Origin: a virus
Lineage: Duplodnaviria > Caudoviricetes
Length of the DNA stretch: 64,000 nucleotides
IMG/VR virus record: IMGVR_UViG_2889388703_000001
Coordinates: 1 to 64,000 of that record
Reading direction: 5' to 3' (one strand)
Program-made: the position numbers and the translations under genes
In this document: piece by piece, positions 8,280 through 25,721 of the stretch
How the letters are laid out: every line of letters starts with the position of its first letter
Numbering within the stretch: position 1 is the stretch's first letter
Notes under the pieces: generated by a model
What the model was told of the DNA's origin: nothing
The model's input: only the letters and a program-made list of their open reading frames with translations
Databases searched by the model: none

Positions 8280-8305
8280 ATCGCTAAATGATTAATCTGT
8301 TCGTA

Positions 8306-8800
8306 TTAAAAAGGAAGATCATCCTTTTCGTCAGTCATATTAAGCGTTCCCTGCGTAGGCTGCTGTGGGGCCGCTTGTGCTGGCTGAGCGGGTGAAGGAG
8401 CAGAAGCCGGTGCGGGCTGGCTGCCGAAATCGTCGGGCGAAGTAGGAAGCGGAGCAGACGATGATTCTGCCTTCCGTCCGAGCAGACGGAAATCGCGTGC
8501 CCATATTTCGGATACATAGCGTTTTTCTCCGGTTCCTTCTGCCTCGTAGCTTCGTGTGCGGAACTCCCCTTCCACATATACCTGCGAACCTTTGCGGGCC
8601 AGCTGGCTGATAATTTCGGCCAGATTGTCCCAGGCCACAATGGGAATCCATTCCGTATATTCCTTTGTTTCTCCATTTTCCTTGTTTTTCACTTTCCGGC
8701 TGCAGGCGATGGAGAAACTTGCTACCTTGTGTCCGCTTTCCAGCACTTTATAATCGGGGTCTTTCCCCAGATTACCGATGAATGTACATTTGTTTATCAT
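8306..8800 (-). CDS. ssb: Single-stranded DNA-binding protein
   Basis: NKCTFIGNLGKDP, KGSQVYVEG, acidic DDLPF tail. Confidence 0.95.
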   Translation of the reverse strand: MINKCTFIGNLGKDPDYKVLESGHKVASFSIACSRKVKNKENGETKEYTEWIPIVAWDNLAEIISQLARKGSQVYVEGEFRTRSYEAEGTGEKRYVSEIWARDFRLLGRKAESSSAPLPTSPDDFGSQPAPASAPSPAQPAQAAPQQPTQGTLNMTDEKDDLPF

Positions 8801-8821
8801 ATCGTTTCTTTTAAATATTCA

Positions 8822-8918
8822 GTCCCACGCCGGGGAGTCGAACCCCTGAAATGTGAATTTGTCAAAACTTTAAAACTAAACATTATGGAAAACGTGCGCC
8901 GACGCACTTCACGCGGGA
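8822..8918 (-). ncRNA. tRNA-like element lacking an anticodon arm (candidate antisense RNA)
   Basis: Acceptor-like stem UCCCGCG/CGUGGGA, hairpin GUGCG-UCGG-CGCAC, T-arm GGGG-UUCGACU-CCCC; the middle is an AU-rich anti-start-codon sequence. Confidence 0.5.
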
Positions 8919-8949
8919 GCCATTTTATTCAACTTGGCTATTTAGATAG

Positions 8950-9726
8950 TTATTTCGTAAGTTTAAGAAATTCAGGAACAACACCGTATAATGGTGTCTT
9001 ACCGTCCCATTTTTCAATAAACTGCTTTTGAAGAATTTCTTTAGTTAAACCACGGCTTTGAATCAAAAGCTGTTCTGTACGAAGTTGTTCCAGTTCGTTA
9101 CGCTTTTTTTGTTCTTCAATTTGCTGGTCAAGAACGGAAATATTGGTATTTACTTCGTTACGACTTCTTACTTTATTTGAAAATTCAAGCTGAGCAGAGA
9201 AGCTTCTCAATTCAAGACCTCTATCATTAAATTCTTTCCTTACTATTTGTTCCAGATTTTTTTCAAAAGCAAGAGAACCTCCGTCTGCCATCAGACTGTC
9301 TGTCTTATATTTCCTGCTTTCTTCTTTTATCAGGTCATACATTCGTGGCTCAAGTATATTATCTTCAAGTGAAGTCATAAAATCGTTTCCTCCACCGATA
9401 TGCTTGTTGTCGAATACTACATCTACCGCACGGCTCTTAACAACCTTATATGAATATACCGGACATGCTGTAAACTCTGTGTTGTCCGCAGCTTTTAAAA
9501 TAACCGGCTCTTGGAAACCTCCACGTTGGTCGAACAGCGGAACTTGAAAAAGTTCTGTACCAGGTTCCCATACAGATACTTTACCCGATACAATCTTGAA
9601 GTCTTCTTTCCCATTTTTACCGTAGTTTTCCATTAATACACCTGCATAGTTAGGTGCTACACGAGAACATGCGGAGAATAATACTATTCCTATTACCGCA
9701 ATAATTAAATTAATCGTTTTTTTCAT
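8950..9726 (-). CDS. SPFH/band-7 domain lipoprotein
   Basis: Lipobox-like FSAC, SPFH-type core, coiled coil, WDGKTP C-terminus. Confidence 0.8.
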   Translation of the reverse strand: MKKTINLIIAVIGIVLFSACSRVAPNYAGVLMENYGKNGKEDFKIVSGKVSVWEPGTELFQVPLFDQRGGFQEPVILKAADNTEFTACPVYSYKVVKSRAVDVVFDNKHIGGGNDFMTSLEDNILEPRMYDLIKEESRKYKTDSLMADGGSLAFEKNLEQIVRKEFNDRGLELRSFSAQLEFSNKVRSRNEVNTNISVLDQQIEEQKKRNELEQLRTEQLLIQSRGLTKEILQKQFIEKWDGKTPLYGVVPEFLKLTK

Positions 9727-9913
9727 AAGTTTTTTTGATGTGTTTATAGATTAAATAAATAGATGCTAGCAGAGTCACGCATATAACTGCAATGCCAAGC
9801 CAAGCTGATACATGATTGAAAATCCGGTTCCCGATAAACAGGCCGGAAGCTATGCAAATTGCTTTTATAATTGCTTTCTGCTTACTTGTAAGTTTGATTT
9901 TTGTTTTTCCCAT
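9710..9913 (-). CDS. Small membrane protein
   Basis: Two hydrophobic segments; coupled to the SPFH gene. Confidence 0.6.
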   Translation of the reverse strand: MGKTKIKLTSKQKAIIKAICIASGLFIGNRIFNHVSAWLGIAVICVTLLASIYLIYKHIKKTYEKND

Positions 9914-9914
9914 T

Positions 9915-10277
9915 TTATTTGCATTTCATTACATCACAAAAATTTTCGCTGTACAAATTGTCTTCCCCAGGATTTCCCTGAAACCATATCTGAATACCCA
10001 GGAATTTCGCCACCCTGAACTCGATTCTTGCTCCACGGCTTGACTTCCAGTTCTGCTGCAGGTAGATGTGACCGCAACGGGAAAGCAGCAGAATGTCCCA
10101 CACCATGTGCATCCAGTACGGGCGCGATGGTTTCAGTCCGAGAATGATAGGATTCACGGGAGTGAAACCCATCTCGGCAATCTCCTGATCTGCATTATCA
10201 AAGTTCTTGTATGCCTGCAGGTAGGAAAGACCGCCTATTTTACCGGAGTTATAGCATTTTATGTTTTTCTTTGCCAT
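9915..10277 (-). CDS. DUF4406 (nucleoside deoxyribosyltransferase-like) protein
   Basis: YNSGKIGG...VNP...DILLLSRCGHIYLQQNWKSSRGARIE. Confidence 0.8.
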   Translation of the reverse strand: MAKKNIKCYNSGKIGGLSYLQAYKNFDNADQEIAEMGFTPVNPIILGLKPSRPYWMHMVWDILLLSRCGHIYLQQNWKSSRGARIEFRVAKFLGIQIWFQGNPGEDNLYSENFCDVMKCK

Positions 10278-10366
10278 GTATTTCAGGTTTTACAAAGGGC
10301 TCCGCACGGATGCGGAACCCTGAATTTACAAATACCTTTTATCACCCAACATGTCATTGTATGACA

Positions 10367-10410
10367 TGGCAAATGTAACAATTTTAAACCGAAATCGCAT
10401 TAAAATCGTT
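10367..10410 (-). promoter_or_regulatory. Promoter/operator repeat, copy 1
   Basis: TGGCAAATGTAACAATTTTAA-N8-CGCATTAAAATCGTT; minus strand contains TACATTTG (-7 element); inverted AACAATTTTAA half-sites. Confidence 0.7.
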
Positions 10411-10418
10411 GCTAAATT

Positions 10419-10661
10419 TCATAAAACCTCCGATTTTATATGTATTCTTGCTGATGTAACAGATGCAATACGCTGAATAAGTGATAGATAAATGCCGCCT
10501 TTGTCTTTTATGGTAAGAACGACGCTTCGTTCTACTCCTTTTTTGGCATTCCGGATAGATATTTCGGGCTCTTTTCCTGCTTCAATCCACTCCATGAGTG
10601 CAGCCGCTGTGTACGACTGTTCGAAGCATAGAACGTAGGTCCGGTTGGCGAGTGTGAGCAT
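10419..10661 (-). CDS. Hypothetical protein
   Basis: ORF in operon. Confidence 0.55.
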   Translation of the reverse strand: MLTLANRTYVLCFEQSYTAAALMEWIEAGKEPEISIRNAKKGVERSVVLTIKDKGGIYLSLIQRIASVTSARIHIKSEVL

Positions 10662-10671
10662 AGAGTAAGGT

Positions 10672-11109
10672 TTACCAGTTCAGCAATGAAAAACGTCTGG
10701 AATGTTTGGGCTGCATCATTTCCATTTTCCGCAGTCGTTCGTCGTCAATCACCACATTCGGCACATCGCACGAGTCGCAGGATGGTTTCATTACACGCAC
10801 AATACCGAGCGCGACGGCCATCACCAGCAGTCGCTCGGCTGAATCGAGCGTGGCCCCTTCGTATCGGCTTCCGTGACCGCGTGCCAGAATCCATGGAGCG
10901 CCTTCCGGACGATTGCTGTAACGCATCACGCGAGGAAGTCCCTTCACAGCCGAAAGCACAAACATATATTTTTCTTCCAGCCGGCTACGGCAAAAGGTAT
11001 GCGCACCTTCCGTAAGTCCTGGAACGGTTACGGTTTCTCCGCAACGCTCGTTTGTGCGGTAGGTGGCATACTGGTATATGTGGTTTATTGTATCGGTGGT
11101 GACGTTCAT
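10672..11109 (-). CDS. Hypothetical protein
   Basis: ORF overlapping the MTase stop. Confidence 0.55.
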   Translation of the reverse strand: MNVTTDTINHIYQYATYRTNERCGETVTVPGLTEGAHTFCRSRLEEKYMFVLSAVKGLPRVMRYSNRPEGAPWILARGHGSRYEGATLDSAERLLVMAVALGIVRVMKPSCDSCDVPNVVIDDERLRKMEMMQPKHSRRFSLLNW

Positions 11110-11903
11110 GGCTTAAATAAATCTCCTTGTATCAGTTTACCGTTTGCGGTATTAATTCCTTTCTGGGCTGAAAATATTCTTTCCTGAGAAATGTCGAAAT
11201 ACTTCTTTTCTTTCTCATATCCGATAAAGTTACGCCCTGTATTCATGCAAGCTACACCGGTCGTTCCACTACCCATACAGTTGTCCATCACTGTATCACC
11301 TTCGTCTGTGTAAGTTCGTATGAGATATTCTAAAAGTGCTACTGGCTTCTGTGTAGGATGATAAAAGCTGTCATGCTCTTTGGGGATATCTATTACCGAA
11401 AGCGGATATTTCTCGTTGGTAAATACAGTATCTACTACCTTGAAATCTCCGTAACATTTATTATTTGATTGAACCCCTCTTACATTTCTTCCGTGATTCT
11501 TCTCCCCTATTGTCATTTGAGGATGATATACAGGAAGCTTCTGGTAGAATACCGCTATATCTTCGTGATTACGTAACGGCATACGGTTAGCATTCAGGAA
11601 TCCGGATGAACGTGTACCTTTCTTCCAGATTAAATTGTATCTCCACATTTTTGGATTGCTAATCATCAGACGGGCTGTAAACATTCCCTGACAGAATAAG
11701 ATAATAGCACCGTTTGGTTTTATCAGTCTGCGATACTGACTCCAAAGTTCATCAAGAGGAAGTTCCGTATCCCATTTTGCATGAGGATTCTGTTTATTCA
11801 GCACACCATACGGAAGATCACATATAATACAGTCCAAGGAATGAGCTTCCAAAGAAGCCATTCCTATCATACAATCCATATTGAAAATACTTGCTTGCGG
11901 CAT
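11106..11903 (-). CDS. DNA adenine/N4-cytosine methyltransferase (beta class)
   Basis: DLPY catalytic motif, HPTQKP, DNCMGSGTT SAM motif. Confidence 0.9.
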   Translation of the reverse strand: MPQASIFNMDCMIGMASLEAHSLDCIICDLPYGVLNKQNPHAKWDTELPLDELWSQYRRLIKPNGAIILFCQGMFTARLMISNPKMWRYNLIWKKGTRSSGFLNANRMPLRNHEDIAVFYQKLPVYHPQMTIGEKNHGRNVRGVQSNNKCYGDFKVVDTVFTNEKYPLSVIDIPKEHDSFYHPTQKPVALLEYLIRTYTDEGDTVMDNCMGSGTTGVACMNTGRNFIGYEKEKKYFDISQERIFSAQKGINTANGKLIQGDLFKP

Positions 11904-11907
11904 ACCA

Positions 11908-12492
11908 CTATCTCACTACAAGATTATTCTTTTCAACCAGATGCACACAGTTTATTTGAGCCAGGCAGTCGGCCAGCGGAGTGTGTCTGTCCGCCACCTT
12001 CGGAGGAAGAAGACCTGCACTATCCAGAGCATCCATATACGGACGCACATCGCGCACTTTCCGGAAGTTCCACGGAAGCACTTCTTCGTCGCATCTGTAC
12101 ACGTTCAAGTTATACCATGAATACATGGAACGAAGCATAGCCACGTCGAAATCCAGCTGAAGACACCATAACGTGAAGTCCCTTTCTTCGTCTGTATCAG
12201 CAAGAAATTCCATAAATTCTTCAAAAAAATCCACCAGCGGTGTTTCTACACCTTCCACAAATTCGCGCCGTGCTTCGTCCGACTGCATCATCCACCATTT
12301 AAGTGTAGATGCTTCTACCTTAAAACCGTATCGCATGGAATCGGTAAGGTCTATTTTCCACACCTTCTGTCGTCCGGTTTCACCCGTTTGCGGGTCAAAC
12401 TCTACGGCAGCCACCGAACGGACCACGCTTCCAGGTGTCCTTCCCAGCGTTTCCGTATCTATCATTACATGCTTGAATTTCTTCTCTCCCAT
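11908..12492 (-). CDS. DEDD 3'-5' exonuclease (Rv2179c/DUF5051-like)
   Basis: HVMIDTETLG, TLKWWM, FDVAML, RDVR, HTPLADC. Confidence 0.85.
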   Translation of the reverse strand: MGEKKFKHVMIDTETLGRTPGSVVRSVAAVEFDPQTGETGRQKVWKIDLTDSMRYGFKVEASTLKWWMMQSDEARREFVEGVETPLVDFFEEFMEFLADTDEERDFTLWCLQLDFDVAMLRSMYSWYNLNVYRCDEEVLPWNFRKVRDVRPYMDALDSAGLLPPKVADRHTPLADCLAQINCVHLVEKNNLVVR

Positions 12493-12611
12493 AATCTTTC
12501 ATTTATGTTGAATCAGTCCGTCTTTACCCACACGGCGTTTCTGGTCTTCCGTAGCTTTTTCTTTCGGGAATCTTCCGTGCCATTTTCCTGGCACAAATAA
12601 AACATCCCATG

Positions 12612-12746
12612 TCAATCCTCCATCATTTGTTTTATCATTTTCAGTAGTTCTTTAAATGCAGAAACAGTTATTCCTATTGCAAAAAGAATACTCCATCCAA
12701 AAGCTACACATAATATAACAACCAGAAAAATATTAAACGGATTCAT
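12612..12746 (-). CDS. Small membrane protein (44 aa, not in ORF track)
   Basis: MNPFNIFLVVILCVAFGWSILFAIGITVSAFKELLKMIKQMMED, read manually. Confidence 0.45.
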   Translation of the reverse strand: MNPFNIFLVVILCVAFGWSILFAIGITVSAFKELLKMIKQMMED

Positions 12747-12939
12747 TATTTCTTTTGTATATAGGTTTTTCACGAAGCACATCCAGTGCCATGTCGGCCT
12801 TTCGCACCATGGTCAGCGTTTCCGACGCATAGAGGTCGCCGGCAGCCATGCGTGCCAGAAGTATCTCGCGGTATTCCGCACGCGAAACTACTTCACCGAT
12901 TACCGGAGGCTTTCGGAAAAGATTCACCTGGTAGCTCAT
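12733..12939 (-). CDS. Hypothetical protein
   Basis: ORF with coupled start/stop. Confidence 0.55.
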   Translation of the reverse strand: MSYQVNLFRKPPVIGEVVSRAEYREILLARMAAGDLYASETLTMVRKADMALDVLREKPIYKRNNESV

Positions 12940-13415
12940 ACTTTCTTCCGTTTTGAATCAAACTCCTGCTGGAGGATGGTTTCGTATTCCTCGCCCAGCG
13001 GATAGCGGCTGCACAGGTACGCCTTTCCGTTGTAGATAAACCACTGAGGAGTGTGCTGGCGGTTTATGGGAATGCCAAACGCCACCCGGAAATCGTCGGA
13101 GGTCACGTCCGGCAGGTCCATGATTTTACGTGCTATCTCCTGCCCTTTCTCGTTCTGCATATTCGGTATATATTCTCCCTTACCGATAAACTGGTAGGCA
13201 AAAAGGTTGGGAACTCTATGGAACTTCAGGCTTCCGATTCCTACTCCCGGGAACAGCCGTCCCGGACGATCCGTTCGCGATTCAGCACCCAGACTGGCAG
13301 CCAGTTCGTTGGCCGCTTCCACCGCTCTATTCCCTTTCTCAATCAGTTCCTGAATGCAGCGTCCGCGATGCGTGTTCGATAGCGACACCTTGTAGTAATA
13401 TCTTTTTTCTTCCAT
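12936..13415 (-). CDS. Hypothetical protein
   Basis: 159 aa ORF in operon. Confidence 0.6.
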   Translation of the reverse strand: MEEKRYYYKVSLSNTHRGRCIQELIEKGNRAVEAANELAASLGAESRTDRPGRLFPGVGIGSLKFHRVPNLFAYQFIGKGEYIPNMQNEKGQEIARKIMDLPDVTSDDFRVAFGIPINRQHTPQWFIYNGKAYLCSRYPLGEEYETILQQEFDSKRKKV

Positions 13416-13528
13416 GCCGTTTTCAGATAAATTGTTTTATAAGACTAATGATTCCATACAGGCAGAATCCTACTACCAGTACCAGGCCAATCAGGATAAG
13501 GCATCCCTTCATGGCCATCTTCTTCAAT

Positions 13529-13894
13529 TCATTCATAATCCACTCCTTTCTCCAGCGTCATGCCGGGAATGTAATACATTCCGCAGTTGTTCAGTTTTTC
13601 GAGCGCCGTCTGGATGCTCTTCTGTGAATTATTCACGTAGTTCACCAGATAAGCTTTCTTCCCGTTGTACATAGCAGGAATGAATACCGGCATCACCTGG
13701 TTCCACGGCAGCACACCTCGCGGCACATTACGCATCAGGCAGTCGTCTGTGGGAATTTCCTCGGCATCCTTTGGCAGATGTTCAAGAAAAATGTGTGAGT
13801 CGCCTTCCTCGGCGAGCGCAGTAATAAGGGGATTTTGCAGTTTCGAAAACAGAGCTTTGTTAAGCTCCCTGCGTCGTTGATTAGTGTAGATCAT
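13529..13894 (-). CDS. Hypothetical protein
   Basis: ORF; the track start (13969) lies inside the promoter, so MIYTNQ is the likelier start. Confidence 0.55.
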   Translation of the reverse strand: MIYTNQRRRELNKALFSKLQNPLITALAEEGDSHIFLEHLPKDAEEIPTDDCLMRNVPRGVLPWNQVMPVFIPAMYNGKKAYLVNYVNNSQKSIQTALEKLNNCGMYYIPGMTLEKGVDYE

Positions 13895-13935
13895 TTGCCC
13901 TGCTTTAATGGTTAATTCATTGTTTTTCTTTTGCA

Positions 13936-13980
13936 TGGCAAATGTAACAATTTTAAGCAAGAATCGCATTAAAATTGTAT
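13936..13980 (-). promoter_or_regulatory. Promoter/operator repeat, copy 2
   Basis: TGGCAAATGTAACAATTTTAA-N8-CGCATTAAAATTGT. Confidence 0.7.
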
Positions 13981-13989
13981 CTAAAATTC

Positions 13990-14021
13990 AAAAAAACCAC
14001 CGGTTCACGCCTGAACCGGTG
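13990..14021 (-). terminator. Intrinsic terminator ending the early island transcript
   Basis: CACCGGTTCA/TGAACCGGTG stem with an A-run on its left (U-tract on minus strand). Confidence 0.7.
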
Positions 14022-14052
14022 CTGAATATCAATTAATTGAAGTGTATGTTTT

Positions 14053-14472
14053 TTATCTTCTGTTTTCCTCTTCAATGTTGGCAATCATTTCCTCGTAAAC
14101 TTGCGGAGTTATTGCCGGGTCCTCGGTGTCGGTCGTACCGATTTGACGTATCACCACCTCACAGCCCAGGAAGTGAGCCATGCGCAGGAAGTTCACTATG
14201 TGTGTGTCTTTCCCACGAGAGATGTCGCGGATAGCTTCGTAGGAAACGCCCGTATCTTTGTCGGCCGTCATGAAGTTAACTCCGCAAATCTCCGCACGGG
14301 TGAACAGGAATTTACCTATTTCCTTGGCCGATTTAATGGCACTGTCCGGATAACGCGGAGGATTTGTCGGCAGATTCAGTGCACGATGAATGTTGTAACG
14401 GCGGTATCTTACCACCAGGTAGCCTGCACAAAGCAGGACGCAGATAACTGAGAAAATTGTTGTTCCGTCCAT
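14053..14472 (-). CDS. Membrane-anchored XRE-type HTH protein
   Basis: N-terminal hydrophobic helix; TGVSYEAIRDISRGKDTHIVNFLRMAHFLGCEV HTH. Confidence 0.65.
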   Translation of the reverse strand: MDGTTIFSVICVLLCAGYLVVRYRRYNIHRALNLPTNPPRYPDSAIKSAKEIGKFLFTRAEICGVNFMTADKDTGVSYEAIRDISRGKDTHIVNFLRMAHFLGCEVVIRQIGTTDTEDPAITPQVYEEMIANIEEENRR

Positions 14473-14476
14473 AATT

Positions 14477-14704
14477 TTACTCTATTTCGTTTAAACTTTC
14501 AATTGATTCTTCAATGCTTGAAAGGGCTTCTTCCATATATTCTATGTACTCTTGCATCCGCTCTCCTTTTTCTGATTCCTGGAAAGACTCAGGGAGGTTA
14601 TCAAAGGCTTCCTGTTCTTCGTCTTTGAGTTCTTCAAGTTCCTCATATACTTTTCTCAACGACTCTCTTACGTCTTCGATTTCTTTTCTTCTTTTTTTAT
14701 TCAT
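14477..14704 (-). CDS. Small, very acidic coiled-coil protein
   Basis: 75 aa, E/D-rich. Confidence 0.75.
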   Translation of the reverse strand: MNKKRRKEIEDVRESLRKVYEELEELKDEEQEAFDNLPESFQESEKGERMQEYIEYMEEALSSIEESIESLNEIE

Positions 14705-14727
14705 ACGTTTATAATTTAAAAATGAAG

Positions 14728-14803
14728 AAGGCCGGCGGGGTATTACTCTCCGTCGGCCTTTGCTCTAACTTAAAATTCCGCTTCACAGCGGCAGGAAATT
14801 ATG
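14728..14803 (-). repeat. Inverted leader module A (hairpin + anti-start-region sequence with GUGA tetraloop)
   Basis: Plus strand: GGCCGGCGG..CCGTCGGCC, TCTAACTTAAAA, CCGCTTCACAGCGG, GGAAATTATG. Confidence 0.8.
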
Positions 14804-14847
14804 AATTATTTTATGTGTAAATTTTTTCTTTTTAGAATAATGTTTTA

Positions 14848-14855
14848 TACATTTG
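14848..14855 (+). promoter_or_regulatory. Bacteroidetes -7 promoter element for the crRNA-like unit
   Basis: TACATTTG matches TAnnTTTG; no perfect -33 TTTG. Confidence 0.55.
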
Positions 14856-14948
14856 CATTGTCCTTCAATGGAATTGAAACAATTTCTACTATTTGTAGAT
14901 TATAAAAAGTAAGCTTACTCTTTTAATCGTACCAGAAGGATTTTAAAA
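14851..14948 (+). CRISPR. Solitary mini-array / crRNA mimic: type I-B-like repeat halves around a 39-nt spacer that starts with a Cas12a-type repeat
   Basis: ...ATGGAATTGAAAC (ends 14880), then AATTTCTACTATTTGTAGAT (14881-14900), TATAAAAAGTAAGCTTACT, then CTTTTAATCGTACCAGAAGGA (from 14920); no cas genes in the window. Confidence 0.7.
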
Positions 14949-14973
14949 GGCTACCATGCGGTAGCCTTTTTTT
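14945..14973. terminator. Bidirectional intrinsic terminator
   Basis: AAAAGGCTACC-ATGC-GGTAGCCTTTTTTT. Confidence 0.85.
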
Positions 14974-15598
14974 ATTCTTCGTCATCAAACATACTTCTTT
15001 CAGAAACTTCACATATACAGAAGTTTTTATTTTCGTACTGAGAGAATCTGAAATAATATTTTTCTCCTTTTACTTCGGCAATACCTCGTTTGTATTCTGG
15101 TCTTTCTAATGTATAGAACTCATTCAGTATTTCCTTTTCAAGTTCACTATCTTCATATTCATATTCTGCACCTACTTCTTCACCACCGATAATAGCAGAA
15201 CGATTGTTGTGTCCGTCCCAATATTGAATAGCTTCACATTCTATGTAGTATGCTTCGTCCTCCTCAAATTTACTGATGAAATCGTTGATTTCTTTCTCTT
15301 TTTCTTTAAGTCCTATATCTTCTGCATTGTCAATGGTAAGGTCGTTCTTATCGTATTCCATATCAGAGAATGACTCTCCAAATATTTCAACCCCTTTCGC
15401 TTTCATTTCATTTTCCATGCTGTCACAATAGCAGTTCTTCAGTGAATAGTCTCCGGCTGCTTCTGCGTCAAGTTGCTGTCCGTATTGATCATAGCAGTCA
15501 TGCAGATTTACTTTTTTTACAACATCGGCAGCAATGATATACATTTCGTTGTTATCCCATTTGGAAACAATCACTTTAAGTTTCTTATCTTCAAACAT
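14972..15598 (-). CDS. Highly acidic hypothetical protein (anti-defence/DNA-mimic candidate)
   Basis: 208 aa, strongly D/E-rich; located in the island. Confidence 0.75.
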   Translation of the reverse strand: MFEDKKLKVIVSKWDNNEMYIIAADVVKKVNLHDCYDQYGQQLDAEAAGDYSLKNCYCDSMENEMKAKGVEIFGESFSDMEYDKNDLTIDNAEDIGLKEKEKEINDFISKFEEDEAYYIECEAIQYWDGHNNRSAIIGGEEVGAEYEYEDSELEKEILNEFYTLERPEYKRGIAEVKGEKYYFRFSQYENKNFCICEVSERSMFDDEE

Positions 15599-15723
15599 AA
15601 TTCTATACAGTTTTTTTCGTGTGCCTCACGATTCAGATTAAACATTGCTGGCTGGCGGAGTATCACTCTCCGTCGGCCTTTGCTCTAACTTAAAACTCCG
15701 CTTCACAGCGGCAGGAAATTATG
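15599..15723 (-). repeat. Inverted leader module B
   Basis: TATACAGTTTTT-CGTGTGCCTCACG-GATTAAACATT, GAGTATCACTC hairpin, TCTAACTTAAAA-CCGCTTCACAGCGG-GGAAATTATG. Confidence 0.8.
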
Positions 15724-15730
15724 ATTATTA

Positions 15731-15970
15731 TCATTTCAGAAAACATAATCCGCAACGGTATTCTTTCTTATCTTCCGGAACTTCATATTCTAGCAGGTAT
15801 TCCGCAAAGAAATCTTTCGCTTCCTCTTCAGTTCCGTTTACATCTTCACAAGCGCTGTCGTCTAAAATTATTTTCCCATCACATACAAGACGGTAGTATC
15901 CGCTTATGGACTGTTCGCATTCAAAATTCTTTCCTGTTGCTTTTACTACATCCTCAAAACTAGCTTTCAT
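15731..15970 (-). CDS. Small acidic hypothetical protein
   Basis: 79 aa, flanked by repeat modules. Confidence 0.7.
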   Translation of the reverse strand: MKASFEDVVKATGKNFECEQSISGYYRLVCDGKIILDDSACEDVNGTEEEAKDFFAEYLLEYEVPEDKKEYRCGLCFLK

Positions 15971-16093
15971 GACTCTATACAGTTTTTTCCGTGTGCCTCA
16001 CGATTTGATTAAACATTTGTAGTCCGACTGAGTATTACTCCCAGCCGGACTTTACTCTAACTTAATACTTCGCTTCACAGCGATATGGAATAT
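15971..16093 (-). repeat. Inverted leader module C
   Basis: Same architecture as B (TCTAACTTAATA, CGCTTCACAGCG, GGAATAT). Confidence 0.75.
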
Positions 16094-16097
16094 AATA

Positions 16098-16403
16098 TTA
16101 TTCCTTAATACTATTAAAAATGCTTCTATATATCTTGTTTATTTCCTCAACAGTTAAGAGTTTATTTTTAAGCTCCAATAAACATTCTTCAAAGGTTTCA
16201 CGTTTCGTATAACAGAAACGACTTCCTCCAACAGCATTATATTCAACTGTATTATTCCCTAACGTAATACTCAGATGGTTAGCACCATTAATGTGTATAT
16301 AACCATGGCATTCATCCACGCCCACGCTATACCCTTTCCCTATTTTTTCAACTTCTTTTTCTAGAGATTTGATAAATTTTTTTTGTTCTTGATTGAAACA
16401 CAT
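16098..16403 (-). CDS. Hypothetical protein
   Basis: Start moved to MCFNQ at 16403, next to the repeated leader. Confidence 0.65.
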   Translation of the reverse strand: MCFNQEQKKFIKSLEKEVEKIGKGYSVGVDECHGYIHINGANHLSITLGNNTVEYNAVGGSRFCYTKRETFEECLLELKNKLLTVEEINKIYRSIFNSIKE

Positions 16404-16514
16404 AATAATATACAGTTTTACGTGTGTCTCACGATTTATATTAAACATTTGTAGCCCGAAAGAGTATCACCTCCGCCGGACTTGTTCTAACTTAAAACTA
16501 ACTTGTGGAATTAT
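16404..16514 (-). repeat. Inverted leader module D
   Basis: CGTGTGTCTCACG, GAGTATCAC hairpin, TCTAACTTAAAACTAACTTGTGGAATTAT (no GUGA hairpin). Confidence 0.7.
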
Positions 16515-16588
16515 TTTGTTAACGGTTTATATGTATTTCCCATAATTCTAAAAGTTTGACGTTGTAAATATAGTCATTTTTCACAAGT

Positions 16589-16668
16589 AGCCGAAGGAAA
16601 ATCACTTTTCCTACGGCTGATTTACTAACTTAAAAACTAACGCTTCACAGCGTGACCGATGGAATTAT
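16589..16668 (-). repeat. Inverted leader module E
   Basis: AGCCGAAGGAAAATCACTTTTCCTACGGCT hairpin, CTAACTTAAAAA, CGCTTCACAGCG, GGAATTAT. Confidence 0.7.
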
Positions 16669-16877
16669 AGTATCCAATCAATTTTTTCTAATTCTTCTTT
16701 CTCTTTTGGAGTTAATGAACACAGAAAATCACAATTACTATAGTATTCACCATTTTCTTCCGGATCTAAAAATGAACTTTCAGAAGCACTAACTATTTTC
16801 TGTATGGCATAATATAATTCTAAACTTATACCAGTTATGCTTACCGTTCCGTTCTTATTAAATCTTGTTCTGCTCAT
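16665..16877 (-). CDS. Small hypothetical protein
   Basis: Start moved to MSRTRF at 16877, after the conserved leader. Confidence 0.65.
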   Translation of the reverse strand: MSRTRFNKNGTVSITGISLELYYAIQKIVSASESSFLDPEENGEYYSNCDFLCSLTPKEKEELEKIDWIL

Positions 16878-16944
16878 AATTCTTTTTATTTTATAGTTAC
16901 ACATCGGTTCCGGACCAGGATGCAAACCTGAATCCGGAAGTAGG

Positions 16945-17406
16945 TTAGATGCGCATCATGTCAAGACACTGTTTCATAGGTATAAGTTCGTCACCAAAGC
17001 ATTGTTGCAGGAAATTGTAAGACAGCTTAAAATTTCCTTTTACGCTTCTTATTTTAAATATCTTACCTTCACACAATGACCTGAGATTTTCATCGTCATT
17101 AAGCATCCAGAATAGTTTTTCTAAGGAGTATTTTGGAAGCATCCCAGATATTTGCAATTTACCTACAGGGTGAACTTCTTTAGGAACATCCATTACTGTT
17201 ACTTCGGCAGCAAAAATAGGAAAATCAATTATAGAATCTTGTAAATCGTTTAGATTGTTATCGTCACCTTCATATAGGAAAGCATATTTTCTGAATCTGC
17301 TCCATATCCCGGGTTTAAGAATACTTTTGGATATTTCTACTGGTTCACCTTTCATGAATGTTTCACCATTAGCTACTTTCTCGATTAAATTCTTTTCTAC
17401 TTTCAT
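16945..17406 (-). CDS. Hypothetical early protein
   Basis: ORF with conserved leader. Confidence 0.7.
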   Translation of the reverse strand: MKVEKNLIEKVANGETFMKGEPVEISKSILKPGIWSRFRKYAFLYEGDDNNLNDLQDSIIDFPIFAAEVTVMDVPKEVHPVGKLQISGMLPKYSLEKLFWMLNDDENLRSLCEGKIFKIRSVKGNFKLSYNFLQQCFGDELIPMKQCLDMMRI

Positions 17407-17470
17407 AATTCCAAAATTTTAGTTAGACAATGGTTCTCGTACCAATCTTTTAAATCGGTACGAAATTTTC

Positions 17471-17770
17471 TTAGCGAGCTTTTTCTATTTCCTGGTTGTA
17501 ATTGTTTTGCAGAAAATACATGTCCTCATTATAAAGTACATTCAGATAATTCAGTATTTTCTTCTTACTTCTTACTTTCTTTAGCTTTGATATGCTACCC
17601 ATTCCATTGCTGTCAGTTCTTACATCGCCATTTTTAAATATTAAAAGAATACATCCTGTACATCCTTCCCAATCTGTTATGATTTCTCCTACTTGGAATT
17701 TACCATATTCTTTTACTTCGCTTTTATTGGCATAGTGACGAAAATAATGTTTCTCAATATTTATTACCAT
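17471..17770 (-). CDS. Hypothetical early protein
   Basis: ORF with conserved leader. Confidence 0.7.
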   Translation of the reverse strand: MVINIEKHYFRHYANKSEVKEYGKFQVGEIITDWEGCTGCILLIFKNGDVRTDSNGMGSISKLKKVRSKKKILNYLNVLYNEDMYFLQNNYNQEIEKAR

Positions 17771-17841
17771 AATTCCTTGTTTTTAAGTTAGACGATAGTA
17801 CCGGGCTAAGATTGCAGGCTTAGACCGGTTAGTAGCTAATT

Positions 17842-18102
17842 TCATTTACGAGGTCTTATTTTTCTGAACTTACCTTCATAATCAGCATTTACATGTCCTG
17901 ATTGAGAAAGGGTTATATTCCTACTTCTTCGATACATTTTATATTCTCCCCACCAATATGCGTTATATTTCTTACGCATATACTTGAGAAGATTTATAAC
18001 TTCGTCTGGCTGTTCCCTTGAATATTCAAACCATTCTGAAATGCCACCTTCCCCATCATTATCAAATACAACTACCAATAATCCTGACTTTTGATTTCCC
18101 AT
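17842..18102 (-). CDS. Hypothetical early protein
   Basis: ORF with conserved leader. Confidence 0.7.
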   Translation of the reverse strand: MGNQKSGLLVVVFDNDGEGGISEWFEYSREQPDEVINLLKYMRKKYNAYWWGEYKMYRRSRNITLSQSGHVNADYEGKFRKIRPRK

Positions 18103-18170
18103 AATTCCTTATTTTTAAGTTAGACAATAGCAGCCGGAGGAAGAATCAATCTCCCGTCCGGCCAAAGAAA

Positions 18171-18539
18171 CTATATACAACTCAAAACTTCTCTTTTGCA
18201 GATAGGAAGGAAATTATCTATTAAATATCTAGCGCATTCTTTCCTTTCATTTAGATAGATACTGCACGATTTATTAATATAATCACTCCATCTATCTTCC
18301 AATGTCACTGGTAATATCTGCAATGCGTAATTATGTAAATCAATATCAACTATTCTTTTATTTATTAAATCAATAGCTAAATTAATAGCACTTGTTTTAC
18401 GAGCTACGTCTATGTCGTTTCTATGATTGTTATACCATTTTGTTCTGCACAATCTTACATAATTGTCGTATTTTTGAGTCGTTTCTTCCAGCTTTTCTTT
18501 TTTAGCTTTCAGTTTACTGATTGTTTTTTCTATATTCAT
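18171..18539 (-). CDS. Hypothetical early protein
   Basis: ORF with conserved leader. Confidence 0.7.
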   Translation of the reverse strand: MNIEKTISKLKAKKEKLEETTQKYDNYVRLCRTKWYNNHRNDIDVARKTSAINLAIDLINKRIVDIDLHNYALQILPVTLEDRWSDYINKSCSIYLNERKECARYLIDNFLPICKREVLSCI

Positions 18540-18603
18540 AACTCCTTTTATTTTAGTTAGACAACGTACCTGGAAGGAGTATTACTCTTCCTTCCGGTAT
18601 AAA

Positions 18604-18789
18604 TCAAAAGTTATCAGAAATCTTCTTTTCTACTCTCTTTTTGAATTTTTCTATCATTTCTTCAATCTCACACCGTAGCTCTTCATTTTCCAGATAGGAG
18701 CAATATGTTCTGCTATTATCAATGCTCTGTAAAATGTTTGTTACGGCATATTGATTTTTCTCTGATAAACTAAGTTTTTTTATTCCCAT
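18604..18789 (-). CDS. Small hypothetical early protein
   Basis: ORF with conserved leader. Confidence 0.7.
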   Translation of the reverse strand: MGIKKLSLSEKNQYAVTNILQSIDNSRTYCSYLENEELRCEIEEMIEKFKKRVEKKISDNF

Positions 18790-18855
18790 AATTCCAATAA
18801 TTTTAGTTAGACAATAGCAACCGGAGGGAGTATCACTCTCCCACCGGATTGAGGT

Positions 18856-19497
18856 TTAGGCCCAAAGTTTCTTTGCTAATTTATAGTTCTTTTGAGCTTC
18901 ATTGACCGCTTTTTTAGCATAAGTCAAAGAGTAAGCATGTTCGCGAGGATATTTCCCGGATTTAAGCCCCTGATGATATTCGGTAGCGACTTCCAGTTTG
19001 TGCTCATAATAGTCTATGCTTTCAGGAATTGAAAGATTTATCGTATCAGCTTTGTCTTCCCAATACTTAGCAACTCGTCTGTGTTCCTCTGCTTTATCCA
19101 TCATTTTCACTGCTTTTCCAGTATTGTTCCAGGCATCTTCTATCATCTTACGATGTCTTTTTTCACTGTGATGACCAACTTTGATAGGTTCTCCAAGAGA
19201 AAGGAAATCACGGTCTTTGTTGGATCTATCAAAGTATTTCTGGCTTTTGCTGTCTGCCGCATTAGCCCATTCAAGTCGTCTTTCAGCTCTTTTCTTAGCC
19301 CATTCCTGCACGTTGAATCCATCTGCACGAACTATGGAATAGTAATAACATCCGTCACGCTCAAATATCAGATTGAATACGATACTTTCATTTTCTTTCC
19401 CATATTTGGTAGTTACAAGGATAGTTTCACCTTTTTCATGCTTTTCATCACACTTTGCAAGAAATACATTTGGACACAATTTGTAGTAAACATTCAT
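18856..19497 (-). CDS. DUF3560-like protein
   Basis: GEPIKVGHHSEKRHRK signature. Confidence 0.8.
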   Translation of the reverse strand: MNVYYKLCPNVFLAKCDEKHEKGETILVTTKYGKENESIVFNLIFERDGCYYYSIVRADGFNVQEWAKKRAERRLEWANAADSKSQKYFDRSNKDRDFLSLGEPIKVGHHSEKRHRKMIEDAWNNTGKAVKMMDKAEEHRRVAKYWEDKADTINLSIPESIDYYEHKLEVATEYHQGLKSGKYPREHAYSLTYAKKAVNEAQKNYKLAKKLWA

Positions 19498-19549
19498 AAT
19501 TCAAAAATTTAAAAGTTAGACATAAAAGAATCCGGAGCGAGAATCACTC

Positions 19550-19696
19550 TCAGTCCGGATCGTTGTCGAGATATTCGTACCAGTAAGTCGTTTCTATAAA
19601 TTCGGTAGTAAGACATTCTTCTCCATTTTCTTCCCGGATCAGGTCGATAATGTCCTGTGGTACCGGCTCACCGAACGCATAAATTACTTTGTCCAT
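19550..19696 (-). CDS. Acidic 48-aa microprotein (not in ORF track)
   Basis: MDKVIYAFGEPVPQDIIDLIREENGEECLTTEFIETTYWYEYLDNDPD; occupies its own leader-bounded slot. Confidence 0.7.
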   Translation of the reverse strand: MDKVIYAFGEPVPQDIIDLIREENGEECLTTEFIETTYWYEYLDNDPD

Positions 19697-19762
19697 AATT
19701 CAATCAGTTTTATAGTTAGACATAAGTAAGGCGGTCGGAATCACTTCCGGCTGCCCTCTACA

Positions 19763-20887
19763 TTACAGAGAGAAAGCTTCTCTCAGCTCCGGTTCGCGTT
19801 TCTTTGAGAAAACCCAACCGGCACCGCATTTCAGTTTACCGTTGAATCGTCCGCCAAGCTCCTTGAGCTTCGCTACATAGTCGCGGGTGTTACCGATGAT
19901 AGCCACAGCCTTTTCGCTATAATCTACAATCTGCAAATCAGATTTATTTTCTACGGCTTTTGCTGTAGAACTTACAGGTTTTTCCTCCGGTTTCTGATAA
20001 AGGTCTATATCACTCAGATAACCTCGTAAACAACTTGAAGCAGAAGTGTACTGGTTAGATTCCACAAACTCTGAATAAGACTTTGGGAGAAACTGATTTG
20101 TTTCAGTTATTCCGATAGCCTCTGGATGTTTCGCATAGAATTTTTCTTTTGTCTCATTCCAGATTTTATCAGAATAGCTGCGTTCCAAATCCGGCATATA
20201 ACCGATTCCACCATATAAGGAAGTAAACTCGCTTTTGATGTGTTCTTCAATGTCTTCGTATCCGTTAAATGTCGTATCTACAAACTTAGAACAGATTTTA
20301 GCAACCATCTTTTCGGTCGGACCGTCCGTCCATCTTATGTTGTAGCTTTTTGAACCATTCTTTTTGGAATAGAATTTTACACCTGGGAAAGCACGCTTCA
20401 GAAGCACAAGCATGTTTTGTTTGGCCGTCTTGTCGTCATAGCTATTACACTCAGTCAGTATCGAGCCATACTCTTTTCGGAGCTGATCGGTACGATTTTG
20501 GCTGGCTATACGTTTGTTTTTCTCCAGACGCTCGTTCCATGCCTGCTGTACTTCGCACTGGTGAACCAGTTTGGCTATTTCCTGCTCGGGCATACGGTAG
20601 TCGGGCTCTTTGTCGTCCCAATAGTAACCAATACCGAACTTCTTTGATAACGGCTGGTCGTCCTGCCCTACTCTCCAGTATGCGAAACGGTGCGGTCTAC
20701 CGATTTCTGCCATTTTCTGCCGTCCGTGAATGTCTGGTGCAGAAGTCACGATAAACTTACCGCTTTCGCTTCCTCCATAACCTAAGAACCCATAAACGCG
20801 CTGGCCTACTTCGAGAACCTTTTTACCGATTTCTACCATCTGAAAACCATTTGACCAATCCATTCTGTACATTTTTCCTGATTCCAT
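19763..20887 (-). CDS. LPD29-like (large polyvalent protein domain) protein
   Basis: AKQNMLVLLKRAFPGVKFY...IRWTDGPT...FNGYED; C-terminal DYSEKAVAIIGNTR...LKELGGRFN domain. Confidence 0.7.
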   Translation of the reverse strand: MESGKMYRMDWSNGFQMVEIGKKVLEVGQRVYGFLGYGGSESGKFIVTSAPDIHGRQKMAEIGRPHRFAYWRVGQDDQPLSKKFGIGYYWDDKEPDYRMPEQEIAKLVHQCEVQQAWNERLEKNKRIASQNRTDQLRKEYGSILTECNSYDDKTAKQNMLVLLKRAFPGVKFYSKKNGSKSYNIRWTDGPTEKMVAKICSKFVDTTFNGYEDIEEHIKSEFTSLYGGIGYMPDLERSYSDKIWNETKEKFYAKHPEAIGITETNQFLPKSYSEFVESNQYTSASSCLRGYLSDIDLYQKPEEKPVSSTAKAVENKSDLQIVDYSEKAVAIIGNTRDYVAKLKELGGRFNGKLKCGAGWVFSKKREPELREAFSL

Positions 20888-20950
20888 AATTCTATAAATT
20901 TTAAGTTAGACAATAGGCCCCGGCAGATTCTCAAAAACCTGCCGGAATGT

Positions 20951-21493
20951 TTAAGCTACACAGAAGTAGAAATCACCCTGATGGCGGTATCCGCTGGTAA
21001 GCAATGTCCTGGAGTATGCTTCGTAGTCGAAATACTGACCGAACTCTGTTTGAAGTTCTTCAGGCCATTTCATTTCCGCCATATAGGTGGCAAACGCTTC
21101 TTCAGTATCGAACTGACCCTGATATTTTTCTCTGAACTTTTCTACGAGCTCTTCACCGTCTTTGATATAGGAATAATCCACAAAGTACATATCAAGAAAC
21201 GTAAAAAATGCTTCTGTCTCTGTGTCATCCATATCTTTTGCGCACTGAATGATACCAAATATTCGCGGGTCGATATAGCTTTCGTTTATCATACCGTCTG
21301 GTATGTTTGAGTAGTCCTGATACATAAACTCCGGTTCGTCTTCGTCACTATGCAATTCCTTACAGGCTTCCATAAACTCATCTTTTGATTTATAGTCGGC
21401 CAATTCCATCCATGCGCCAGCCAGCGAACCTTCATTATATTTCTTATATGTACCTACATATACGCTTGCTCTGATTAATTTTGATTTTTCCAT
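20951..21493 (-). CDS. ardA: ArdA-like antirestriction protein
   Basis: VYVGTYKKYNEGSLAGAW, EFMYQDY, YFDYEAYSR; acidic. Confidence 0.85.
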   Translation of the reverse strand: MEKSKLIRASVYVGTYKKYNEGSLAGAWMELADYKSKDEFMEACKELHSDEDEPEFMYQDYSNIPDGMINESYIDPRIFGIIQCAKDMDDTETEAFFTFLDMYFVDYSYIKDGEELVEKFREKYQGQFDTEEAFATYMAEMKWPEELQTEFGQYFDYEAYSRTLLTSGYRHQGDFYFCVA

Positions 21494-21560
21494 AATTCCA
21501 ATAATTTAAGTTAGACATAAAAGAAGCCGGAAGCAGTTTCAGGCTGCTTCCGGCTGGATA

Positions 21561-21716
21561 TTAATTGTAGACTCTGACTTTTTTTACATGCCATATACCG
21601 CGTAGAAAATGACTGTCAAATCTCGCATTCTGTATTGAGCGGTACGGACCGCGTTTTGCACCTCCGTTACATAGGTCCACACATACCAGGTAGTATTCAT
21701 AATGATATTTTCCCAT
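21561..21716 (-). CDS. Basic 51-aa microprotein (not in ORF track)
   Basis: MGKYHYEYYLVCVDLCNGGAKRGPYRSIQNARFDSHFLRGIWHVKKVRVYN; own leader-bounded slot. Confidence 0.65.
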   Translation of the reverse strand: MGKYHYEYYLVCVDLCNGGAKRGPYRSIQNARFDSHFLRGIWHVKKVRVYN

Positions 21717-21783
21717 AATTCCTTTGTTTTAAGTTAGACATAAAGCAGGCGGCCACCGGATAATCAGCAGCTGCCTGTATGAA

Positions 21784-22032
21784 TCACTCAAGCTTGAATA
21801 GAAAAAGATTCTCTTTGCCTTCCATATCAAAGGTGTATTCCGGTTCCTTTTTTATGTGGGAGAAAAAGTCATCCTTTTTTTGATACACATACAGATACAT
21901 TCCTTCGATATTTACATCTTCTTCCGTTCCGAAATACTCTTTTGTATTTACATCCTGAACAAACCCAGAACAACAGTTATCAAGTCCTTCGCATGAAAAG
22001 TGATTCAGCAGATTAAAAGTTTCTTGTGTCAT
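21784..22032 (-). CDS. Small acidic hypothetical protein
   Basis: ORF with conserved leader. Confidence 0.7.
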   Translation of the reverse strand: MTQETFNLLNHFSCEGLDNCCSGFVQDVNTKEYFGTEEDVNIEGMYLYVYQKKDDFFSHIKKEPEYTFDMEGKENLFLFKLE

Positions 22033-22095
22033 AATTCCGATAATTTAGTTATACGATAGCATCCGGCACCGCTGCAAGGCGGAACCGGGTAATAG

Positions 22096-22509
22096 TCAGG
22101 AAAGAGCACGATTCAGACGTTTCCGGATTTGTGGTACCGTATAAAAATCCCCATAATAATTTCCTCCGAATACGCCATCATATCCATAATAGGAAAGTAT
22201 GTCACTCAACATATATTGAGGAAAGTTTTTTACGTCATCCAGCCATTCTTTCCCATTTTCCATACAGCATGTAGAAGCTATTCTGGCTGCATCCGGATAT
22301 TCATTTTCTCCCATGGTGTCAATAAAATATTTTTCCCATTCTTTCGGATTGAACCATCCGTATGCGTATAAAGGTTTGTCTCCTTCATAGCCTGCAAGAT
22401 ATATCACCTGATATTCATAATTTCCATGGTAACGCATAAGAAAACCGTAATCAAATAACGATGATTCATTGTTAGCATCCACGCCAAACCAATTTCTGTT
22501 TTTATCCAT
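22096..22509 (-). CDS. Tyr/Asp-rich hypothetical protein
   Basis: ORF with conserved leader. Confidence 0.7.
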   Translation of the reverse strand: MDKNRNWFGVDANNESSLFDYGFLMRYHGNYEYQVIYLAGYEGDKPLYAYGWFNPKEWEKYFIDTMGENEYPDAARIASTCCMENGKEWLDDVKNFPQYMLSDILSYYGYDGVFGGNYYGDFYTVPQIRKRLNRALS

Positions 22510-22570
22510 AATTCCATAGTTTAAGTTAGATATAGCACTGATTCCTGATATAAACAGGAATCAGTTTTGT

Positions 22571-22897
22571 TTAATAACGTAAACCTAATTCTGTACATTC
22601 TGACGGAGATATAGTTTTGTAATTTTTTTTATACCTACCAAAATCGTCATTATGACAAATTTTTCTTGCAGGTTTCCTGTCATATGAGTAGCACACATTT
22701 TCGCCTTTTGAGATAAATATTGCGAATTTATAGGCCAAATATTCAACCGATTCCTTATTAAATGTGCTACTCCATGTATTTACTACATACTTAACTTTAT
22801 TATCATTGTCTACGATAACAAGGTATTTGTCTTCCCTGTCCCATACATAACCGATTTCTACATTTACGTTTTTACCGTTTACATCTAAAAGCTTCAT
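22571..22897 (-). CDS. Hypothetical early protein
   Basis: ORF with conserved leader. Confidence 0.7.
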   Translation of the reverse strand: MKLLDVNGKNVNVEIGYVWDREDKYLVIVDNDNKVKYVVNTWSSTFNKESVEYLAYKFAIFISKGENVCYSYDRKPARKICHNDDFGRYKKNYKTISPSECTELGLRY

Positions 22898-22961
22898 AAT
22901 TCCTATAGTTTTAAGTTAGTAATCGTGTCTGGAAGTACCGTAAAGCACCTCCAGCATGGAA

Positions 22962-23177
22962 TTAATACCCCATAGCGTCGTAGTACGATTTGTTTTTTAC
23001 GTACTCTCTCGCTATTTCGTAGTCACTGCAATCTTCGCCGAGCTTTGCGCTAATACTTTCGTATGCGCTTTTGGGCATTACATAAATAACCTGTTCGCTC
23101 CAGTCGGAACGACCGGCGAAACATAAAGCCACGAATAAAAACACGCAGCACAGAATGACTTTAATTTGCTTTTTCAT
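22962..23177 (-). CDS. Small secreted/membrane protein
   Basis: Signal-peptide-like N-terminus; degenerate leader. Confidence 0.65.
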   Translation of the reverse strand: MKKQIKVILCCVFLFVALCFAGRSDWSEQVIYVMPKSAYESISAKLGEDCSDYEIAREYVKNKSYYDAMGY

Positions 23178-23240
23178 AACTCAAACTATTTAAGAAGTTT
23201 GCAGGCCGTACACCGGCAAAGGTGAACGGCCTGATAGAGT

Positions 23241-23528
23241 TCATTCTGAGATGTATTCATCCCAAGATTTTTCAAGCATACCGTTATCTTTTGCCCATTT
23301 TCCATAACGGGATAGAAAATCTTCAAAATCATGCTTTTCTGAACACTTCAAGTTTTTCATATAGGACTTATTCCCATAGAACTCTGATAACTCTTTTTTC
23401 CATCCATTATAGAATGAACATTCATGACCATTGGCTAATATTCTTCCAGCATAGTCTTTTAATTCTTCATTTACTTTGCCGAATGTATTAATGTAACCAC
23501 AAGCATAGAAAAACAGTAATTCTCTCAT
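23241..23528 (-). CDS. Hypothetical early protein
   Basis: ORF with conserved leader. Confidence 0.65.
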   Translation of the reverse strand: MRELLFFYACGYINTFGKVNEELKDYAGRILANGHECSFYNGWKKELSEFYGNKSYMKNLKCSEKHDFEDFLSRYGKWAKDNGMLEKSWDEYISE

Positions 23529-23544
23529 AATTCAAAAAGTTTAT

Positions 23545-24180: not shown

Positions 24181-24184
24181 AAGA

Positions 24185-25216: not shown

Positions 25217-25247
25217 CAAAGGTAGTACTATTTTCTGTATATGCAAA
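25217..25247 (-). promoter_or_regulatory. Consensus Bacteroidetes sigma-A promoter driving the early island
   Basis: Minus strand TTTG-N19-TACCTTTG, a perfect -33/-7 match. Confidence 0.8.
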
Positions 25248-25360
25248 TACATGGCACTATTTTCTGTATTAATTTAACCGTTATTTACTATTCAAACCAA
25301 AACGAAAGGTTTATTTACATTTACCGCGCTTTCTGGTGGCGTTCCTCCATGGTGAGGAAC

Positions 25361-25655: not shown

Positions 25656-25721
25656 ATATACTTTATGTATTGTCCTTTCTACATACGTTTCCTTTTAGTA
25701 TCTTTGCTAAAAATAAAAAAT

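Follow-up and report, generated by a model that had tools for sequence, protein, structure and literature searches.

Inverted copies of a shared translation leader at the distal end of a phage early operon, candidate antisense RNAs and cassette joints

In phage T4 two proteins, the translational repressor RegA and the endoribonuclease RegB, both act on many early mRNAs (review: PMC3014915); in phage lambda, sib retroregulation relies on a local hairpin acting on one gene, and the early RNA of T7 carries RNase III sites. Among RNA effectors, FopS and GibS of Bacteroides thetaiotaomicron are the closest described, and FopS-10 bound beside a start codon abolished translation in vitro, with rescue by compensatory changes (PMC11697453). 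In T4-like phages the early regions contain short intergenic stem-loop motifs termed PeSL (PMC2839356, PMC4122927). Here we analyse the first 64 kb (the window) of the 101,070-bp IMG/VR virus record IMGVR_UViG_2889388703_000001, a Caudoviricetes genome with an estimated completeness of 93%, in which most genes of an early operon start behind one shared leader and the last cassettes of the same minus-strand unit are bordered by five inverted copies of it (modules A to E). The best reading of these copies, which we hold tentatively and somewhat short of an even chance, is that they would silence the early genes as antisense RNA.

Nearly all genes of the window lie on the minus strand, where the only consensus promoter within 12-26 kb (25217-25247) is of the Bacteroidota type and has a densely packed array of small genes downstream of it. 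These genes include ArdA, a DUF3560 protein and an LPD29 protein, the majority being ORFans, and the array is the early anti-defence operon of a Bacteroidota phage. The host is very probably a member of the Bacteroidota because of this promoter type and because the nearest relatives of the head protease are in Flavobacterium, Cellulophaga and Porphyromonas phages, and the Bacteroidales are the likely order; a megablast search against deposited phages gave no match.

The leader shared by the array genes is unusually frequent. Its 12-mer TCTAACTTAAAA is matched 24 times in the window with at most two mismatches, compared with 9.4 +/- 2.9 matches in shuffled sequences, and 24 was reached in none of 100 shuffles. 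At most one mismatch leaves 14 matches in the entire genome. Of these, 13 are intergenic in the interval 14764-24746, where the minus strand has eight and the plus strand five (at 14764, 15684, 16056, 16486 and 16624). Looser matching adds further minus-strand copies, and at least 13 intergenic minus-strand copies have the order hairpin, leader, ATG. The second block, GAATTATG, is similarly clustered, with 16 of its 22 genome-wide matches on the minus strand at 15596-23526. We count about 14 strict forward (type-1) leaders plus three or four degenerate ones, which makes the figure of about 17 in an earlier note on this DNA a fair one. Written as minus-strand DNA, a forward gap has a stop, then a GC hairpin that often bears a GNRA cap and, after about 8 nt, (T)ATTGTCTAACTTAAAA, N4-6 and GGAATTATG. 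In 149 unique forward copies the motif starts 21-24 nt upstream of the AUG, and A stands at -12 and -13 in 99%, at -14 in 89% and at -3 in 99% of them. In the Bacteroidota, which lack Shine-Dalgarno sequences, the positive determinants of initiation include A at -3, -6, -12 and -13, as ribosome profiling and reporters showed for Flavobacterium johnsoniae (PMC6847099). Since the conserved A positions match these determinants, the forward leader is best read as a standardised, strong translation initiation region; it contains no promoter consensus.

The five inverted modules lie where the earlier note had placed them and read as it described (Table 1). A distal gap runs ATAATT(T)CC, a first hairpin hp1 (CGCU-GUGA-AGCG; missing in D), TTTTAAGTTAGA and, 4-6 nt further on, a second hairpin, hp2; the next gene then follows behind a leader of another type. 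The two arms of the inverted leader are thus split in four of the five copies by hp1, a small GNRA-loop hairpin with a 4-5-bp stem and a mean folding energy of about -5.5 kcal/mol, which sits, as had been claimed, exactly where the spacer of the target varies. In module D ACAAGTTAG takes its place, a hairpin-less form kept in many relatives, and the left arm of module C is degenerate and without CAU. The stop codon of the upstream gene is usually within the left arm ATAATTCC, and in module E this is the stop codon of a 70-aa gene. Every inverted copy is followed after 4-6 nt by the stronger hp2, a feature that, with its orientation, is absent from the earlier account. Its apical loop (GAGAGUGAUACUC type) is GUGA or GUAA on the minus strand, in the same orientation as the hairpins of the upstream modules, and from this it follows that the leader alone is inverted, having changed side and strand, and that the hairpin is not flipped. 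The G-U pairs of hp2 showed no strand asymmetry. The distal genes do use a different (type-2) leader, which besides the copy in Table 1 also precedes the starts at 15970 and 16403.

The loop of hp1 is of GNRA form on the minus strand only (GTGA 48, GCGA 8, ATGA 1), again as first noticed in this genome. This constraint bears on another possible reading, a motif that works as double-stranded DNA. It could bind a repressor of the phage or host or a nucleoid protein, or be a promoter read by an unknown factor, and the inverted copies, as the same site turned round, might drive antisense transcripts from the plus strand. The motif does recur on both strands in this region only, and four modules match TTCACA-N16-18-TATTAT on the plus strand in a sigma-70-style scan. 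Yet the hp1 loop is constrained on one strand only, the fixed distance to the AUG and the translation determinants point to a role at the RNA level, and the half-sites, otherwise about 5 bp apart, are separated by about 18 bp in the inverted copies. Moreover no Bacteroidota-type promoter (TTTG...TAnnTTTG) is found in or beside the modules on either strand, and the host is very probably of this phylum; altogether we consider a DNA site very unlikely. A promoter inside the modules was rejected for the same lack of a consensus, the sigma-70-like plus-strand matches being irrelevant to this type of host. Plus-strand peptides initiated at the inverted ATGs, which the earlier note had named as a competing cause of conservation, are rejected as well since the ATG is not conserved: it is missing in C, D, E and many relatives, which read GATAATTCC, TATAATTCC or AATAATTCC. 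Judged from the sequence, the anatomy is real and conserved and, at the RNA level, specific to one strand.

The layout belongs to a family of gut phages with genomes of about 100 kb and recurs in some 40 related viral contigs. When IMG/VR was scanned for exact patterns, 32 stretches held the inverted module and 30 the forward leader, the two lying on the same strand of the same contigs of about 55-120 kb. Further loci came from a protein-based search with the 75-aa gene that is conserved downstream of module A; among them is a distant member, L098, with 55% identity in this flanking gene. The common map consists of a promoter, 10-17 forward cassettes, two conserved genes, one to five variable cassettes and the 75-aa gene as the end, and the boundary of a variable cassette consists of an inverted module, its hp2 and a leader that is one of four kinds. 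In each of the 57 loci with at least two forward and at least one inverted copy, the inverted copies are distal to all forward leaders. Anchoring on the 75-aa gene is independent of the motif, and left arm, hp1 and right arm are kept in 22 of the 23 distinct regions upstream of that gene. The bipartite complementarity reported in the earlier note is real, specific and kept across the phage family, including the left arm, which was absent from all search patterns. Across the family hp2 has compensatory changes in six of its eight stem pairs, and the arms are unpaired in the consensus fold. The core of hp1 is invariant and its fifth pair varies (C-G 30, A-U 9, U-A 1, C.A 14), module D and many relatives have lost hp1 and kept both arms, and the spacers between arms and hairpin vary while the arms stay constant. 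Distant contigs with homologues (L089-L132) showed no analogous sense/antisense repeats except L098, which has the same system. Any target would be internal to the phage since, in prokaryote genomes of 185,579 species, the inverted module has no match and the full leader occurs in one metagenome-assembled genome contig only; the single contig also led us to reject the leader as a mimic of a host start region.

The modules also mark places where genes have been exchanged. One upstream gene end (RCGLCFLK*) is joined at the module to five different downstream genes and other ends to two to four, and the stop of the upstream open reading frame (ORF) usually comes from the module, mostly as the TAA in ATAATT, sometimes as TGA from the hp1 loop or as TAA/TAG from the right arm. 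By this evidence the modules are recombination joints of a hypervariable cassette region. They could be cassette linkers and nothing else. In that case a forward module would once have turned round about its hairpin, through inversion or template switching, and homologous recombination between co-infecting relatives would have kept the product; complementarity to the leader would be a historical by-product. Besides the promiscuous gene ends, the variation from one to five distal cassettes with a module at each boundary speaks for this, as do the stops that the module supplies in all three frames and the PeSL precedent (PMC2839356, PMC4122927). But joints need no identity with a leader, and 12 + 9 nt remain leader-identical even in the distant L098 lineage, with constant arms beside variable spacers. 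Such short arms are poor substrates for gene conversion with the forward copies, simple inversion does not explain a layout in which hp2 is not inverted, and inverted repeats of a 14-fold direct repeat would promote harmful inversions. A role as linkers only is a serious rival, which we rate at clearly less than an even chance.

Base pairing with the leaders seems the most economical explanation, because the exact leader complement is kept beside variable spacers, despite the loss of hp1 and in a distant lineage, and because its place is always distal. For the five modules, the net cofold energy (complex minus monomers) averages -12 to -16 kcal/mol with the 14 type-1 start regions, -4 to -8 kcal/mol with the four degenerate leaders, -2 to -4 kcal/mol with the distal type-2 starts and -4 to -6 kcal/mol with 33 other phage starts. 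In the predicted module-leader complex hp1 is retained as the third arm of a three-way junction. Cofolding, a check proposed in the earlier note, therefore favours type-1 leaders, and the distal genes would escape because of the weak predicted pairing of their type-2 leaders. Masking of the leader should block initiation, since the leader carries the Bacteroidota initiation determinants.

The same arms could act in cis, the left arm at the upstream stop pairing with the next start about 115 nt away and upstream translation opening the downstream start (translational coupling). When whole intergenic regions are folded, such a helix forms in the minimum-free-energy and centroid structures of A, B and E; it is absent in C and D and leaves the right arm unexplained. 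In 79 unique contexts the cognate arm-start duplex has -5.9 kcal/mol, compared with -6.0 for non-cognate pairs and -5.5 +/- 2.2 for shuffled arms. With cognate pairs no better than non-cognate or shuffled ones, sequestration of the adjacent AUG, which the earlier note had offered as its alternative, is to us the least probable of the explanations considered.

We propose the following for silencing by pairing in trans or over long range. Most of the early anti-defence cassettes share one standardised translation start region, and the 3' untranslated stretches of the last, variable cassettes hold the reverse complement of the leader as two arms predicted to be single-stranded, parted in most copies by a small GNRA-capped hairpin and followed by a strong one; in module A, hp2 and then a U-tract give the look of a small RNA 3' end. 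Once RNA polymerase had reached the distal end, about 8 kb downstream of the promoter, the anti-leaders could pair with the leaders, either within the long mRNA or after processing to small RNAs derived from the 3' untranslated region. Pairing would cover -23 to -12 and -9 to +3, including A(-12,-13), A(-3) and the AUG, and would block initiation, possibly also creating double-stranded substrates for host RNase III. Distal genes with other leaders would escape, and the same modules double as conserved joints for the exchange of distal cassettes between phages. We infer minus-strand transcription of the modules, pairing in vivo, repression and timing from the letters of these genomes. The full proposal, a multi-copy bipartite anti-leader RNA in the 3' end of the operon that shuts off at least 14 upstream cassettes after a delay set by transcription and also serves as exchange joints, is possible but clearly short of an even chance.

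Several observations weigh against silencing. The pairing energies are not independent evidence, complementarity being automatic for an inverted repeat, and covariation between arms and leaders of different lineages could not be used, with too little variation in two nearly invariant partners. We found neither a promoter nor a processing site that would yield a discrete small RNA, and the modules matched no Rfam small RNA family or other known RNA family (cmscan of 8000-27000 on both strands, E up to 1). Module A lies beyond a strong, classic terminator (14945-14973) in this genome, the left arm overlaps stop codons so that terminating ribosomes would disturb it, and at least one other role of the modules, as recombination joints, can be demonstrated. 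Finally, hp1 with the U-tract resembles a weak terminator. What the earlier note held about an antisense guide thus stands as to anatomy, specificity and distal position, and it had not considered the recombination joints or the weak-terminator score.

This last resemblance could itself be the function: hp1 and the U-tract (UUUUAAGUU) would be a weak intrinsic terminator or attenuator that steps down distal transcription, the leader merely supplying the U-tract and stops. On the minus strand a terminator scan flags hp1 with its tail in three modules, A, B and E, hp1 stands 1-3 nt before the U run in nearly all copies, and UUCUUCAUUUUU follows hp2 of module A. However, the stem is only 4-5 bp long and weak in mean energy, module D and many relatives are without hp1 and with both arms, the U-tract is broken in module C, and the conserved AAGUUAG and left arm ATAAUUCC are needless for a U-tract. 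An attenuator as the function of the modules is accordingly improbable. Compared with hp1 and its tail, hp2 of module A with UUCUUCAUUUUU makes the better candidate terminator, and in several relatives, where module A directly follows the last cassette gene, the module looks like the 3' end of the early transcript. Two other classes of element were rejected. For integron attC sites, GTCTAAC and GTTAGA fit RYYYAAC/GTTRRRY but never flank the same hairpin, and the divergent ORF adjoining the promoter has no integrase domain. For hammerhead-like or other small self-cleaving ribozymes, no CUGANGA or GAAA core flanks hp1 and no Rfam ribozyme matched.

Table 1. Positions of the leader array, the inverted modules and their flanking signals in the window
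Feature	Positions	Strand	Details
hp2 of module A	14730-14758	-	loop GUAA, then UUCUUCAUUUUU; terminator-like 3' end
Inverted leader A	14764-14803	-	CAUAAUUUCC, hp1 at 14778-14791 with loop GUGA, then UUUUAAGUUAGA
Classic bidirectional intrinsic terminator	14945-14973	.	3' of 208-aa gene
Type-2 leader of distal gene	15599-15646	-	AAUGUUUAAUC, CGUGAGGCACACG, AAAAACUGUAUA
hp2 of module B	15650-15678	-	apical GAGAGUGAUACUC
Inverted leader B	15684-15723	-	hp1 at 15698-15711
hp2 of module C	16022-16050	-	loop GUAA
Inverted leader C	16056-16093	-	right arm with one change (UAUUAAGUUAGA), hp1 at 16070-16083
hp2 of module D	16454-16481	-	
Inverted leader D	16486-16514	-	without hp1: AAUAAUUCC, ACAAGUUAG, UUUUAAGUUAGA
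hp2 of module E	16589-16618	-	loop GUGA, perfect stem
Inverted leader E	16624-16668	-	hp1 at 16640-16653
Forward-module array (presumed targets)	16878-24746	-	gaps: stop, GC hairpin, ~8 nt, (U)AUUGUCUAACUUAAAA, N4-6, GGAAUUAUG
Bacteroidota-type promoter	25217-25247	-	TTTG-N19-TACCTTTG; heads array

Several further features of the locus were observed. Many intergenic hairpins of the forward array and of the loci L004-L052 share an apical module of stem, A, GNRA, U, bulged A and stem (GAGAGUGAUACUC), and the stems that carry this apex differ and covary; the shared apex suggests a common protein or tertiary contact. No phage-encoded RRM protein or RNase III was found, and no tRNAs were found. At 16511-16543 on the minus strand a 10-codon mini-ORF (MGNTYKPLTK) lies behind a shortened type-1-like leader; its start is that of an 84-aa gene (MGNTFKP...) in several relatives. 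By this comparison the gene is truncated here, and the hairpin-less module D directly follows it. In L098 (7900-8010) an inverted module, hp2 and a forward-type leader (ACTAACTTAAAA) stand together in one intergenic region before the homologue of the 75-aa gene, which may represent an ancestral arrangement of anti-leader, hairpin and leader.

About 115-190 bp upstream of the promoter, a 10-bp unit, GACACCAGCG, is repeated in tandem (25361-25438; 7.8 copies, 91% matches). The repeat falls within the divergent ORF 25241-25834 or overlaps it, and could be protein-binding iterons or a coding repeat. Two minus-strand stretches have neither a standard leader nor an Rfam match: a GC-richer untranslated one of about 470 nt between promoter and first cassette (24747-25216) and a hairpin-dense non-coding one of about 640 nt within the array (23545-24180). 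Between the terminator and module A a plus-strand unit (14848-14975) has a -7 box TACATTTG at 14848, AATTTCTACTATTTGTAGAT at 14881-14900, then about 45 nt and the bidirectional terminator. We take AATTTCTACTATTTGTAGAT to have the form of the 3' end of a Cas12a direct repeat (stem UCUAC/GUAGA), and the unit may be an RNA anti-CRISPR or a solitary crRNA-like unit.

If silencing by pairing were correct, abundant gut Bacteroidota phages would time their anti-defence genes (ArdA, DUF3560, LPD29 and many ORFans) by a self-contained RNA circuit without a regulatory protein, an RNA-only counterpart of T4 RegA/RegB or of Aca repressors. Regulation would then be tied to phage genome evolution, since anti-defence cassettes are swapped at these very elements. 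Bacteroides genetics would gain a portable on/off pair in the leader and its complement. Should the antisense role fail, the locus is still a clear Bacteroidota example of PeSL-like modular shuffling.

Comparison with the systems described above sets out what would be new here. Our proposal shares with T4 RegA/RegB a global post-transcriptional shut-off of early genes through their start regions, but those effectors are proteins and the one proposed here is an RNA complementary to a uniform leader. With lambda sib and T7 it shares a distal element of the same transcript that controls an upstream gene and intercistronic hairpins in a long early mRNA; unlike sib, it would involve long-range or trans pairing with many leaders. 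PeSL are, like the modules, short conserved intergenic stem-loop motifs that flank ORFan genes in hyperplastic early regions, and both are points of cassette exchange (PMC2839356, PMC4122927). PeSL, however, contain an early promoter, whereas the modules are without TTTG...TAnnTTTG and a single promoter (25217-25247) heads the array, and PeSL were not reported inverted as complements of a shared leader. FopS and GibS resemble the proposed phage RNAs in being multi-copy and in belonging to a phylum without Shine-Dalgarno sequences (PMC11697453 for FopS). They pair beside the start codon of several mRNAs and block initiation, whereas for the phage modules such pairing is predicted, and they are chromosomal, have their own promoters and belong to another sequence family. 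The phage copies, in contrast, lie in the 3' part of an operon and consist of two arms around a GNRA hairpin, and their target would be the standardised leader of the phage itself.

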